A stretch of DNA of 51,574 nucleotides, taken from assembly GCA_002269645.1 (NCBI GenBank), contig NIVC01004292.1, positions 1-51,574 of the forward strand, written 5' to 3'. Both the position numbers and the translations under genes were made by a program. Source of the DNA: Macrostomum lignano. Lineage: Eukaryota. This document shows, one piece after another, positions 1-10,454 of this stretch; position 1 is the first letter of the stretch; every line of letters begins with the position of its first letter. The notes below the pieces were generated by a model. The model did not search any database and had not been told where the DNA came from. It was given only the letters and a program-made list of their open reading frames with translations.

Positions 1-583
1 GGACTGGCAGATGGCTCGATTTGCGAAAGGTCCGTCGGGCTGATGTCGGCCTCTAGCACCGCGGCAAGGTGCTCCCTCGGGTGTACCACCTCCCCCGGGG
101 TGTACCTCCAGCGGGGTGGGTGTCCAGCGAGTGTACCTCCAGCGGGTGGGCCTCCCGCGAGTGTACATCCGGCCGGCTGGGCGTCCAGCGAGTGTACCTT
201 CAGCGCATGGGCCTCCCTCGGGGTGTACATCCGGCGGGGGGATTCCCGCCCCTCCCACCAATGTCGTGTGCACGCGGTTAGTGTAGGAAGGAAACCCCCG
301 ATGCTGACGCAGCCCTGTACACTGAGCAACCGGCCCCCCATGCGGGGGACAGAGAGCAGCCCTGTAGCAGGAGGGGTAGTGCGTGGAGAGCCGCCATCCC
401 CCTGTAGCAGGGACAGATAACAGGCGACCCCTGTAGCAGTATGAGGTGGGGTACAAAGAGACACGGGGTGCTGGGACAGAGAGTGCGTGGAGGCACCCTG
501 CGCTGCCCTGGCATGTCGCAGCACGCGGCGTGGACAGAGAGGGAGTGTGAGTCACACGGAGGGACAGAGAGCTTCCCCCCAGG
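1..583. repeat. Left TIR of the Polinton-like element (outer few bases cut by window edge)
   Basis: ggactggcagatggctcgat... is the reverse complement of ...atcgagccatctgccagtcc ending at 10446. The match extends inward to ...gagagcttcccc(cc)agg near 583. Confidence 0.95.
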
Positions 584-674
584 GCAGTAGAGGACTTGAA
601 AAGAAAAAACACGTATTTTAGTTGTTTCAGGTTCAGGCCATCCGGCAAACAGAGCAAAGCTCTCCAACAGTGTT

Positions 675-1304
675 TTATTTAGCATAAACTACGGGGTAGC
701 GCCCCAACACATTAGCATAGTAGCGAACAGATGCGTTCTGCAAGCAATTAACAATCAAGTAGGAGTAGGGCTCCCTAGTGGCGTCTTCGTACATTTGAAC
801 AAAACTTTTTGGGTTAGCGGGGACAAGCTGCTTTGCAATATGGGCGACTGTACTAACGTCCCGTACATTGCGGAACAATACAAGGTAGTTTGCGTTAAGG
901 GATTGAGTGCGGTGCTCCTTGCCCTTGGCAAACAGGTTTTGTACAAGGTACCAAAGCCGGAATCCCACATGGCTGACTTTGCGAGTGAAAAATGCGGTAA
1001 AAGCAGCGTTTTTTTCCATGGCTTGCATTTGATCATCGACAACGAGTAGAATATTCGGAGCGGGAACATAGGTTTCAGGGTTAAATGTAGACGAGCGAAA
1101 ATTGACAGGGTACGGTAATTCAAACAGTTCCGGGTCTGGATAGTGCCCAAACCAATCAACGCGAACAGGCTTAGGGTCCTGAAAAAACTCGTTTCGCAGC
1201 AATTCTTTAACAAGAGTTGTTTTTCCGCTCTGGTTAACACCAGCAAAAATCGCCGAAGTATTTGGAGCAAACTTTAGAGCGTCAGGATCAATTGTTTGGT
1301 ACAT
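675..1304 (-). CDS. A32-like (FtsK/HerA) genome packaging ATPase, ~209 aa
   Basis: Walker A GVNQSGKT, Walker B LLVVDD, and TRKVSH / LVQNLF / SLNANYLVLFRNVRD motifs typical of Polinton ATPases. ATG is at 1304; the track start at 1328 is TTG. Confidence 0.93.
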   Translation of the reverse strand: MYQTIDPDALKFAPNTSAIFAGVNQSGKTTLVKELLRNEFFQDPKPVRVDWFGHYPDPELFELPYPVNFRSSTFNPETYVPAPNILLVVDDQMQAMEKNAAFTAFFTRKVSHVGFRLWYLVQNLFAKGKEHRTQSLNANYLVLFRNVRDVSTVAHIAKQLVPANPKSFVQMYEDATREPYSYLIVNCLQNASVRYYANVLGRYPVVYAK

Positions 1305-1338
1305 TTTCAGGGCGAGTTGACACTCCAAATATTAAAAA

Positions 1339-1776
1339 CTATTTTATTTGTAGAACATGTTTTCGAACCATCAAATCATTTTCAAGCAGATTGGTAGAGT
1401 AACATTCCCTTAAAATCTTTTCAATCGACAACCCCTCTAAAAAGTGCTTTTCGGCCACAAAAATCACATGCGGCCCACACGCTACACTTAGAGGGTGTTG
1501 AACAGGGTGGCGATTCATAGCAACAGGTGAATGTACATGCTTCGAGATCCAAGCCGAGAGCAATTCCGGCACGGGTTCAATACACAGAGGGTCAAAAAAT
1601 GTCACACTCTTATCATCGTGTAGGCAAATCAGTCCCCAGTGGGTGCCTGGCAGATTACCCGTGTCAAAATTAATTACATATGCAGCAGGGTAAACAGGTG
1701 CAGGAATTCTGTCGAGAGGGCAAACGTGCACTTCCACAGGTAGTTTTAAACGCTCCAAAATTTCCAACGTGTTCAT
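1339..1776 (-). CDS. Adenain-like (C5) cysteine maturation protease, 145 aa
   Basis: GTHW (His), FFDP (Asp) and QHPLSVACG (Gln, Cys) catalytic motifs. The ATG overlaps the major capsid stop (ATGA). Confidence 0.92.
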   Translation of the reverse strand: MNTLEILERLKLPVEVHVCPLDRIPAPVYPAAYVINFDTGNLPGTHWGLICLHDDKSVTFFDPLCIEPVPELLSAWISKHVHSPVAMNRHPVQHPLSVACGPHVIFVAEKHFLEGLSIEKILRECYSTNLLENDLMVRKHVLQIK

Positions 1777-3054
1777 ACGTAGTCCAGAATGGGCTGGCGG
1801 CCTCTAGTGATTTGCACCGCGTTGTCAAAGTAACCAAACACCAAAACGTTAATCCCGGCAGGTAGGGCTGCAGAAAACTTTATCTGTAGGGTCAGATTCC
1901 CTCTCTCGCGAGGCATGCTATGTCCACCCAGTTCCATATCGGGCATTAGATTCCACGCAAATAAGCAGTAACCGGCGCGATAATCCGAATATGACAGGTC
2001 AATGTCCAAATCGCGATTCATTTTCCCTAGGCTCTTAAACAGCATGGCGTATTCGCGAGCATAGTTTTGGGCAGCGAACCTTGGAGTGAATGGTTGACCG
2101 CACAGACTGACACCGTCCTTGTACAGGGCCACACTGTCAGCCCCAAATGGCTCGAAATTGAACGGATTATGGGTGCCACCCCGTTATATGCGGCACTATT
2201 TACCATCCCATAATGACAAGTTTAGGCTTCTGCTCCGGGAAAATATTATTGATTGACACGTCGCGAACTCCTACAGCGACAGAGGTGTTGTGTACAACGA
2301 GGCGCTCGATGGGGTAGACTGCATTCTGAGTTGCCAGCTGTTCTTCAATCTCCAAGGCCAGTTGGGGGTTAGCCTTTACCCGACGAACGTGTAATTTTGC
2401 ACTTTGAAGAACCAACTTTGCATCAACCCCTTCGGCGTGATTCTCTACAACGAATCCCGAATTTTGCAGAGTGAGCGTAACCACCATATCAGTGTAGGGT
2501 AGCAGCATACGATCGTTGGTGACAAAAAAGTCGAGACTAAGAGGGCCATACAGGTGAAATGTTCGAGAACCGGCAGCCATCGCCTTGCGAGTTACAAAGC
2601 CAGGATTTCCAACCGCAGCCATTTGACCCCCAGCGTCTTTAGCGTAGCCCATCATCCGCAGTTGGTTAGACTTTGAATCAGACCCATAACTCAAGCATGT
2701 ACGAATGTACGCCTTGTAGGCGTGGTTGTTGTTGCTAGACTCGATATGTGTACCATTTATGGAAAGAGACACGTTTTTGAACATGGTCTCCAAGAGGTAA
2801 TTGATTGGCGCCACGTTTGAATCCGCCGCCAAATCGGCTCCATTAGCTCTTTTAATACAACCTTTAATCTCGAGATCAATGTCATTAAGATCGACAAACG
2901 TCTCGCCGCCCACAATTCTAAACTCAACCACACTCGCATTTTCGACGCTGGCAACCGGGTGGATTTCTTCAGTAGTTGAACCTACAGCGGCAATCTGGTG
3001 GGCTCGAGGGGCAAAGAGCTCAAACTCGGACTTTGTACACAGACACTCGGACAT
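1773..3054 (-). CDS. Major capsid protein (double jelly-roll), ~427 aa after repairing two 1-bp deletions near 2207 and 2172
   Basis: N-terminus MSECLCTKSEFELF and C-terminus GNLTLQIKFSAALP...YFDNAVQITRGR..ILDY are Polinton MCP hallmarks. The gap between track ORFs reads MG-MVNSAAYNGVA-HNPFNFEPFG across two frame changes. Confidence 0.9.
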
Positions 3055-3083
3055 GTTTAGTAGACAGACTCGATTCGGCGAAT

Positions 3084-8916: not shown

Positions 8917-8945
8917 TTCGATATTGTTGAGAAATACCAATTTTA

Positions 8946-8955
8946 TTTATTTATA
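8946..8955 (-). promoter_or_regulatory. TATAAATAAA box (also Fic stop codon and AATAAA)
   Basis: 39 bp upstream of ATG 8916. Confidence 0.6.
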
Positions 8956-9720
8956 GGCTGCCGTCTGAACAGATTTCCAACCATTCCCTCCACTGTAGAA
9001 CGGTTCTCTCAATTGATAAAAGTAAATACGCCGCTAGGAGCCCCCGGTTGCTGCTGCGCGCTTCGTAAAGACAGTTGAGATATGTGTCTCTATTTGCATA
9101 CGCAAATGATACGGGTTCTGGCAGAATCCGGTTGATCAACTTTGATAATAACAACCTAGCAGTTCTACCATTGCCGTCGCTAAAGGGGTGTATGGTGAGA
9201 AACTTTTCTAGGAAATATGCTCCTGTCACTACTGCATCACGCAAGATTTGTGGCTCTTTTATGTCTCTAGTTAATTTTACCAGCTGCCGTTCAATATTTT
9301 CTGGGCACTGTAATACATACTCGCGCCTGCTGGCTTGGCGTGCTTAATTCTATACGATCCTGCATTCGGGAGCAGTCCTCTACACACGCGTGTGTGAACT
9401 TGTCTAACAAACTCTGTGTCAATTAACCCCCTCGTGTCATTGAGGTGTTTTGCCGCACTCCATAGATTGGCTGTGACCATACAGGACCCGGTTTTTATCG
9501 CTTCTTCTGCTTCCTCCCAAGTCAACGCCACCTCTCTCTCCTCAATGTTTACTTCAGTTACGAATGCCAGCCGGGCTAGATACGTGAATTCTAAGCGCTC
9601 CTTTGCGGTCAATCCCTCGATTCTTTTCCTAGTGTCTGATAACAATCTTTCAATGAGGGGTAATCTGGCGCGCACGCTCTCGTTGCTGAAATAGGGGTTA
9701 TCAGTTATACCCTCTTCCAT
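8951..9720 (-). CDS. Fic (Fido) domain protein, ~256 aa after repairing a 1-bp deletion at 9303-9305
   Basis: Canonical HPFSDGNGRTAR motif, plus FVRQVH and AGSYR. The repaired junction reads YYSAPENIERQLVKL...AYFLEKFLTIHPF. Confidence 0.9.
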
Positions 9721-9751
9721 GTTCTCCATACAGAGGGTTTTGTACACTGCT

Positions 9752-9761
9752 TCTATTTATG
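9752..9761 (-). promoter_or_regulatory. TATA-like box CATAAATAGA upstream of the Fic gene
   Basis: 41 bp upstream of ATG 9720; one-base variant of the element's recurring box. Confidence 0.5.
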
Positions 9762-9855
9762 GTTGCATTAACACGTTGCTCGCGGCCTGTCTGTCCCTCT
9801 GCAGCCTGGGGGGCTCTCTATCACTCACCGCCGGTCTGTCCCTCTACCACCCCGG

Positions 9856-10454
9856 CCTGGGGAAGCTCTCTGTCCCTCCGTGTGACTCACACTCCCTCTC
9901 TGTCCACGCCGCGTGCTGCGACATGCCGGGGCAGCGCAGGGTGCCTCCACGCACTCTCTGTCCCAGCACCCCGTGTCTCTTTGTACCCCACCTCATACTG
10001 CTACAGGGGTCGCCTGTTATCTGTCCCCTGCTACAGGGGGATGGCGGCTCTCCACGCACTACCCCTCCTGCTACAGGGGCTGCTCTCTGTCCCCCGCATG
10101 GGGGGCCGGTTGCTCAGTGTACAGGGCTGCGTCAGCATCGGGGGTTTCCTTCCTACACTAACCGCGTGCACACGACATTGGTGGGAGGGGCGGGAATCCC
10201 CCCCCCCCGCCGGATGTACACCCCGAGGGAGGCCCATGCGCTGAAGGTACACTCGCTGGACGCCCAGCCGGCCGGATGTACACTCGCGGGAGGCCCACCC
10301 CGCTGGAGGTACACTCGCTGGACACCCACCCCGCTGGAGGTACACCCCGGGGGGAGGTGGTACACCCCGAGGGAGCACCTTGCCGCGGTGCTAGAGGCCG
10401 ACATCAGCCCGACGGACCTTCGCAAAATCGAGCCATCTGCCAGTCCTTAGTAGT
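9856..10454. repeat. Right TIR of the Polinton-like element
   Basis: Reverse complement of 1-583, verifiable to 10446. The following TTAGTAGT is probably the terminal microsatellite, but the exact end is uncertain. Confidence 0.92.

Follow-up and report, generated by a model that had tools for sequence, protein, structure and literature searches.

Introduction

Polintons, also called Mavericks, are described as elements of 13–25 kb with a canonical gene set (10.1101/2023.08.22.554363; PMC8097293). Reference Polintons end in AGTAGT…ACTACT or (AG)3, and the open reading frames (ORFs) of intact vertebrate Mavericks are reported to be intronless (PMC8097293). In this group, the N-terminal domain of the protein-primed DNA polymerase of type B (pPolB) is established as the terminal protein, which primes at the DNA end (PMC11071308). 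Here we analyse a stretch of 51,574 nucleotides from Macrostomum lignano (the window), the start of contig C4292 (NIVC01004292.1) in an assembly of 764 Mb and 5,269 contigs (GCA_002269645.1). It opens with a 10.45-kb Polinton that carries no pPolB. The family of this element is called segment A and its sister family B; P1 and P2 are the proposed polymerase partners of A and B, respectively. Sequence comparison makes it likely that A and P1 form a bipartite, mutually dependent Polinton, with A as the virion-and-integration half and P1 as the polymerase half.

Segment A shares with Polintons and adintoviruses the terminal inverted repeats (TIRs), the 6-bp target duplication, an rve integrase with a chromodomain and, judged by homology, a putative major capsid protein (MCP), minor capsid protein, ATPase and protease. 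Together, A and P would hold the canonical set. Here, however, pPolB and the integrase lie on separate elements, the ends read ACTACT…AGTAGT and the polymerase gene has introns.

Segmented viruses with a Polinton-derived pPolB are described among the Bidnaviridae (Bombyx mori bidensovirus) and in Drosophila Vesanto virus. Their segments have terminal repeats and matching ends, and each segment has its own capsid (PMC4061559, PMC8502044, PMC8363768). These viruses differ in having single-stranded DNA, a parvovirus-type capsid, an SF3 helicase, the polymerase and the major capsid protein on one segment, and no integrase. A and P, in turn, are integrated DNA with a virion kit of the Polinton type, polymerase and capsid are on different segments, and A has no helicase. 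The killer/helper linear plasmid pairs of yeasts (zymocin type) are not known to integrate, and both members have a polymerase of their own. The partners in such a pair, linear DNAs of the pPolB type, measure ~9 and ~13 kb, and one of them aids its fellow (PMC13348850); they are cytosolic and lack particles. Transpovirons resemble P as capsid-less linear replicons that depend on a virus (PMC11071308). They parasitise giant viruses, whereas P has a full pPolB and Polinton-type duplications.

Polintons without polB, and remnants without an integrase, have also been described. Mobile, TIR-flanked polintons without polB are reported in Pieris mannii; unlike A, they carry transposable-element cargo and have highly similar complete sisters, and the part of the preprint at hand describes no polymerase-only partner (10.1101/2025.02.07.637071). 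Remnants of pPolB and TIRs without an integrase are reported in C. elegans, with no partner proposed in the portion at hand (10.1101/2024.01.15.575659). For other replicase-less viruses, a multipartite organisation appears in the source excerpt only as a hypothesis (PMC11071296). We found no bipartite or split Polinton described in the literature searched; coverage was incomplete, and preprint supplements with gene maps could bear on this novelty. Polintons are defined by the presence of a polymerase and an integrase in one element. According to their available text, surveys often require the two within 20 kb (10.1101/2023.08.22.554363; 10.1101/2024.01.15.575659), and a split form would escape them or be classed as debris.

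Segment A moves as a unit without a polymerase gene

Segment A has TIRs of ~0.6 kb and 13 genes, all on the minus strand (Table 1). The ~10.45-kb TIR-to-TIR unit with 13 co-oriented genes described in an earlier note on this DNA was confirmed, the intergenic gaps being at most 132 nt when the ATG-less TBP-like frame is counted as a gene. The same note called the unit TIR-complete. This is true of the family and not of this contig, which begins inside the left TIR; both tips are complete in contig C5237, where the element has the same right flank and the 6-bp duplication. The tight packing against the TIRs leaves no room for pPolB, as had been stated, with distances from the inner TIR edges of 81 nt to the ATPase stop and 116 nt to the Fic start instead of ~90 and ~135 nt.

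Table 1. Features of segment A in the window
Feature	Position	Strand	Remarks
Left TIR	1..593	+	96.9% to 9846-10446 (inverted, 607 columns); first 8 nt missing (contig start); full tip in C5237
Packaging ATPase, presumably A32/FtsK type, 209 aa	675..1304	-	Visible Walker A and Walker B motifs; ATPases of related Polinton loci are 28-43% identical
Adenain-like cysteine protease, 145 aa	1339..1776	-	26-30% to gene after MCP in related loci
MCP	1773..3054	-	Two frames here; homologs named F54H12.2-like
Small basic protein, putatively core-type, 114 aa	3084..3428	-	29-35% to gene before MCP in related loci
Presumed minor capsid (penton-type) protein, 379 aa	3472..4611	-	25-27% to matching gene in related loci; 39% to family B
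Retroviral-type integrase with C-terminal chromodomain	4615..5693	-	rve E=4.7e-10; Chromo E=0.071; two frames here
208-aa ORF	5826..6452	-	49% to family B; no family match (Pfam, PHROGs)
Conserved small Polinton protein	6496..6843	-	115 aa in this copy, elsewhere 129 aa; 29-41% in 20/80 related loci
TBP-like frame, 178 codons stop to stop	6882..7418	-	No ATG; overlaps SSB 3' end
Single-stranded DNA-binding protein (SSB), T7 gp2.5 / ASFV CP312R type, 226 aa	7282..7962	-	Predicted fold
171-aa ORF	8051..8566	-	60% to family B; no credible family match (Pfam, PHROGs)
117-aa ORF	8563..8916	-	Absent from B copy read
Fic-domain protein	8951..9729	-	Fic E=4.6e-11; two frames here; absent from B copy read
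Right TIR	9846..10454	-	Tip reads …TAGTAGT; 10423-10454 = 32-bp end module, kind common to A and P1
Target-site duplication CATGTT	10455..10460	+	Left copy visible in C5237

The searches give lower bounds, and so do the copy counts given here. The candidates scored were 40 of 230 in the TIR search, 150 of 293 in the ATPase search, 132 of 158 in the pPolB search and 150 of 1288 in a further search. Among those scored, at least 11 other TIR pairs are spaced 10.44–10.52 kb and one is spaced 13.9 kb, and at least 23 full-length copies of the A ATPase are 99–100% identical. A piecewise comparison of ten sister copies found all of them colinear with the copy in the window (96.5–99.7% identity). The copy-by-copy check of gene content proposed earlier thus found no pPolB in any of them. 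Target duplications of 6 bp flank nine of the ten copies, corresponding to seven distinct insertions once duplicate assemblies are removed; in the tenth, a partial tandem copy comes next. Colinearity and duplications at seven distinct sites indicate that the polymerase-less form moves as a unit. The 13.9-kb pair, C2210, was rejected as a complete parent. Its extra 3.4 kb (L026:4727 to L027:581) are a non-coding transposon with short TIRs inside the minor capsid gene. Segment A is no one-off deletion, and the clean deletion derivative named as the alternative in the earlier note is disfavoured.

Among the features by which Polintons are recognised, A has a TIR within 100–1500 bp, the 6-bp duplication and the rve integrase. 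A pPolB inside the element is lacking by match, by room and in 10/10 copies, and ACTACT…AGTAGT stands in place of an (AG)3 or (AGT)2 end motif.

A has no polymerase or helicase match, as the earlier note had held: none came from Pfam (14 ORFs and two further frames), from PHROGs (0/13 segment A proteins matched) or from tblastn, in which polymerase loci supplied 18 of the 19 queries. Tlr1 and Polinton-like viruses are likewise described as having a virion kit without a canonical pPolB (PMC11071308). They have a substitute replicase or helicase, while for A no SF1 or SF3 helicase or primase was matched in Pfam or PHROGs; its three family-less ORFs are of 117–208 aa.

The MCP, minor capsid protein, ATPase and protease of A are all homologous to genes of pPolB-bearing Polinton loci. 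The ATPase gave weak P-loop matches only in Pfam, and the protease matched Peptidase_C48 under the cut-off (E=0.062). For the MCP, which we take to be a double jelly-roll protein, searches of Pfam, PHROG and PDB sequences gave no match. The capsid assignments are putative and come from homology to Polinton loci rather than from a fold.

The 226-aa ORF had been named an SSB in the earlier note, and the predicted fold confirms it as a gp2.5-type SSB. Residues 1–172 were modelled with a pLDDT of 83. The model aligned with CP312R of African swine fever virus (ASFV; 8hw5) at Z 11.3 and rmsd 3.7 over 157 residues, with T7 gp2.5 (1je5) at Z 10.0 and with the Enc34 SSB (5odk) at Z 8.3, against a background of ~5. 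Foldseek returned the same top matches (E 0.002–0.03), and giant-virus proteins ranked first in a viral structure library. The full-length model had a pLDDT of 41, no usable match was obtained from the Atlas, and the PDB sequence search gave nothing credible.

The genes given for MELD viruses include a TBP-like one (PMC8502044). The frame of A scored 22.6 bits against a cut-off of 22.9 in Pfam TBP (E=9.5e-5), and its top Atlas matches are TBP (score 0.95), with recognition under the usual level. It is open as one frame in 9/10 copies and 73–81% identical in B. In A as in B, a TTGCAG that resembles a splice acceptor lies before the conserved start.

The copy in the window is not intact: the MCP, integrase, Fic and 115-aa ORF are broken, which had gone unremarked in the earlier note. 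The frame changes lie near 2183-2203 (MCP), 5088-5094 (integrase) and 9277-9343 (Fic). Elsewhere the MCP is a single frame of 427 aa in 8/10 copies, Fic one of 259 aa in 8/10, and the integrase is open over 379 aa in 9/23. The copy in the window and that in C5237, which share an insertion site, are not broken in the same way, so the breaks are presumably assembly errors.

A polymerase segment with the ends of segment A

The A-end pattern also matched other elements. One of these, C2368, starts with 21 nt identical to the right end of segment A in the window, followed by a pPolB gene. A whole copy of this segment, P1, was read in C986. It is 9,758 bp long with TIRs of 1.16 kb and contains pPolB (PF03175, E=6e-14), a 182-aa ORF and a 332-aa ORF. 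There is no credible tblastn match in it to any protein of A, and none at E≤0.01 to the virion and integrase proteins. Neither of the two smaller ORFs has a family or a counterpart in the P2 copy; the UniRef matches of the 182-aa ORF (L054:6793-7341) are limited to four proteins, at 62–77%, that carry the label Macrostomum lignano. P1 polymerase loci number at least ~65 at 83–100% identity among the scored candidates (by eye, duplicates included). Seventeen P1 copies with both ends located measure 8.8–10.5 kb, which is too short for an added 5.0-kb virion block. The 6-bp duplications are perfect in 6/6 P1 copies tested, though P1 has no integrase, and they occur at 10/10 P-type ends tested, eight of which have a pPolB match. 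With the SSB on A and the polymerase on P, the replication machinery is split between the segments.

The polymerase of P looks alive. The gene has GT-AG introns at three catalytic motifs, and P1 and P2 agree in these positions (L052, L054, L055). Contigs from four sequencing runs of four studies, aligned to C2368, skip L052:2200-2271 and 5661-5733 (4/4 each), 5779-6269 (3/4) and 2817-2903 (2/4). All four skipped stretches have splice-type ends on the coding strand, and those at 2200-2271 and 2817-2903 coincide with two of the three motif introns. The third motif intron is absent among the skipped joints listed, and further spliced joints lie upstream. These runs contain 66–91% of the sampled words of A, as word content and not as alignment. 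A and P1 occur in 4/4 runs, all from the same organism and none recorded as RNA.

In 3/3 A–P1 end pairs tested, the sequences are identical for exactly 32 nt and then diverge, and blastn of the window against C986 found nothing in common beyond the end. The A/P1 end pattern has 159 matches, compared with 4 in the control. Two blocks within the 32 bp are variable; of the 13 end alleles observed in A, five were also recognised on P1 (by eye, among 100 of the 159 matches). The earlier note had asked for a pPolB-bearing partner with identical TIRs. P1 is such a partner in its polymerase, with identity over the terminal 32 bp and not over the TIR.

In the ends of A, P1, B and P2 the two blocks are hypervariable. 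They differ by many bases between copies that are otherwise 97–99% alike, occur in mixed combinations and recur across segments. In C4635, C3150, C1823 and C135, the alleles at the two ends of one copy differ.

Everything shown for A itself concerns integration, namely the 6-bp duplications and the integrase. This would fit a reading of A as a capsid-bearing transposon of the cut-and-paste type, excised and reinserted by its integrase and raised in copy number by host replication without any viral replication, with P as a passenger. We regard this as highly improbable, because it leaves the conserved spliced polymerase of P, the SSB of A and the shared end alleles unexplained.

A second segment pair

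Family B repeats the arrangement of A. Among the scored candidates, at least 17 full-length B ATPases are 86–87% identical to that of A. The B copy in C261 is 10,174 bp long, has the gene order of A at ~75% DNA identity and lacks the polymerase, Fic and the 117-aa ORF. Eleven B TIR pairs are spaced 9.8–10.5 kb and one 14.3 kb, and the one B copy tested has a 6-bp duplication (1/1). B ends begin ACTACGT and A ends ACTACTA; the B pattern has 37 matches against 0 in the control. Between A and B, 0.78–0.95 of second codon positions and 0.42–0.61 of third positions are identical. With second positions conserved beside diverged third positions, the design is old and under selection. By such comparisons, the genes of segments A and P stay under purifying selection.

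P2 polymerases, 57–72% identical in protein to P1, occupy at least ~37 loci among the scored candidates. The P2 copy C566 starts with a B-type end, and its polymerase is 65% identical in DNA to P1. No virion or integrase gene was found in 8.9 of its 9.5 kb (E≤0.01). The P2 end pattern has 54 matches against 0 in the control, and the B allele of C175 is identical over 31 nt to three polymerase-bearing P2 copies. P2-type ends have 6-bp duplications in 4/4 cases, two of which (C657, C2132) lack a polymerase match. Thus P2, with B-type ends and its own end motif, bears out for family B the prediction of a partner. The third-position identity of P1 and P2 is 0.45, inside the A/B range, so one genome holds two matched pairs of similar depth. 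Only three contigs among the scored candidates have both A/B and P elements, at least 35 kb apart.

A bipartite virus had been offered in the earlier note beside a satellite. This option is strengthened by the polymerase-only partner with identical 32-bp ends and by the second, apparently co-diverged pair: complementary gene sets lie on segments with matching ends. Replication by host enzymes, also suggested there, is now the less likely option.

The dependence could also run one way. P would then be a parasite of the plasmid type, able to replicate itself and imitating the ends of A for integration and packaging, and A, with no need of P, would be copied by host enzymes or by the polymerase of another Polinton. 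The ~65 P1 loci against ~23 of A fit such a parasite, other pPolB families are abundant, and gene-less elements also have these ends, so that the shared end could reflect exploitation rather than mutual need. Against this, A has no replicase yet keeps an SSB of the strand-displacement type, its ends, with ACTACT, are reversed with respect to the AGTAGT that Polintons usually have, and A/P1 and B/P2 each match and have diverged to similar depth. We consider one-way dependence unlikely.

Several further kinds of element have these ends. The gene-less ones in C816 (L049), C1705 (L056), C2693 (L050/L051) and at C261:123483 (L047/L048) share the ends and were rejected as partners; they are non-coding palindromes with arms of at least 2.4 kb. 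C1368 and C4195 are end-only mini elements of 247 bp, and the shortened P2 copies C2786, C3085 and C4430 (4.4–6.0 kb) have the shared ends. The palindromes, end-only elements and shortened P2 copies resemble defective genomes.

A 6.4-kb tandem unit from C102:170343 on (L053) opens with a diverged A-type TIR (74–87%) with its own end allele and holds what we take to be a mariner-like transposase frame. Units of this type also occur in C135, C885, C2093, C4137 and C4144. Polymerase pieces in C237, C19, C89 and C4420, 57–64% identical to P1, are perhaps a third P lineage.

Search for a joined element

No element with both A-type virion genes and P-type pPolB was found among the scored candidates, in ~100 P-type and ~45 A/B loci. 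Next among those candidates come an intact ATPase family at 39% identity and a pPolB at 40% identity. On C4072, a P1 polymerase lies 8.7 kb from an ATPase. This candidate was rejected because P1 sits inside the MCP gene of an unrelated Polinton. C2932 has a P1 polymerase and an ATPase at the same 8.7-kb offset. The interrupted element (C4072:4700-14690, L077) belongs to another high-copy Polinton family with an ATPase 36–39% identical to that of A. By eye, its other frames presumably correspond to TBP, dUTPase and phospholipase A2.

A metagenome scan found relatives only at an MCP identity of 29–38%, and 80 loci were kept. Twenty-two of these are at least 6.5 kb long; in ten of the 22, the sequence before the ATPase amounts to no less than 1.8 kb, and nine of the ten carry pPolB there. 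Judged by these informative loci (9/10), the distant relatives are monopartite. The ATPase of A lies at the far end and has moved relative to the related loci. A viral contig scan with the B capsid found no relative. Capsid relatives at 78–80% and SSB relatives at 46–56% were matched and are known from these matches.

These results bear on another reading, in which A and P would both be old deletion products, non-autonomous and derived from a complete parent that the assembly lacks, that was lost recently or that other individuals carry. For Pieris, the preprint text at hand reports polB-less polintons that are mobile and have complete sisters (10.1101/2025.02.07.637071). The fragmented assembly and the scoring of a share of the candidates also leave space for such a parent. 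It was, however, not among the ~100 P-type and ~45 A/B loci, the same split would be required twice, A and P have only 32 bp in common and not the whole TIR, and both segments stay under purifying selection. Derivation by deletion is accordingly a very improbable explanation.

How the two segments may act together

A bipartite Polinton of A and P1 could work as follows. With its N-terminal terminal-protein domain as primer, the polymerase of P1 would begin at the ACTACT end that the segments share and copy either of them by strand displacement, aided by the SSB of A. The integrase of A would recognise the same end and insert either segment, so that the 32-bp end may serve as origin and as integrase site alike. 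Packaging of both ~10-kb segments would fall to the ATPase, capsid proteins and protease of A, probably with one segment per particle, which the similar segment sizes would suit. The TBP-like protein of A may help to transcribe the segments. The pair may have arisen by a split of an ancestral 15–20-kb Polinton before A/P1 and B/P2 diverged, and repeated exchange between segments would keep the end module matched. The gene-less palindromic elements would exploit this module like defective genomes. Trans-complementation and particles are thus expected on this scheme.

More broadly, and with somewhat less confidence than in the pairing itself, we favour a naturally segmented double-stranded DNA virus of the Polinton type. 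Its two genomes, one for replication and one for virion and integration, would integrate separately, recognise each other through the 32-bp end module and exchange end alleles. They would have diverged together into two segment pairs or more, with defective palindromic satellites.

Several points weigh against the bipartite reading. No particle, free linear DNA or trans-acting activity has been observed, and the system is known from sequence, in one host only. The host genome holds many other Polintons with pPolB and integrase, which are potential helpers and whose ends were not read directly. Whole gene content comes from one B, one P1 and one P2 copy, and the searches give lower bounds. Every polymerase copy read has frame breaks beyond the introns; the runs were not aligned to A, and their RNA nature is a guess. 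The ~3:1 excess of P1 over A is also compatible with a parasite, and the gene-less elements with the same ends show that the ends are open to exploitation. At C106:353964-375023, a 21-kb pair of A/P1-type ends encloses a 35%-identical integrase with the interior unread; this is probably a nested Polinton.

A 2026 preprint speculates, in the part at hand, that replication modules of these viruses move alone (10.64898/2026.10.13.758929). P would be such a mobile replication module, with its own ends and ~100 loci. If the bipartite reading is true, the segments are a living intermediate for swaps of replication and morphogenesis modules among Polinton-like viruses. Three questions become testable in one animal: particle formation, the action of the polymerase in trans on any DNA with the right ends, and the sequence of origin and integration, narrowed to 32 bp.

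Other features of the window

Beyond segment A, the window contains a 15-bp tandem array (11681-15742; 271 copies, 93% matches) that is open in several frames. The gag-pol of a Gypsy-type long terminal repeat retrotransposon occupies two long frames at 25646-29478. Two host frames have recognisable domains, MACPF at 29654-30583 (E=8e-11) and galectin at 39272-39979 (E=3e-6). Long exon-like frames without a Pfam match lie at 42548-44083 and 47621-49717.

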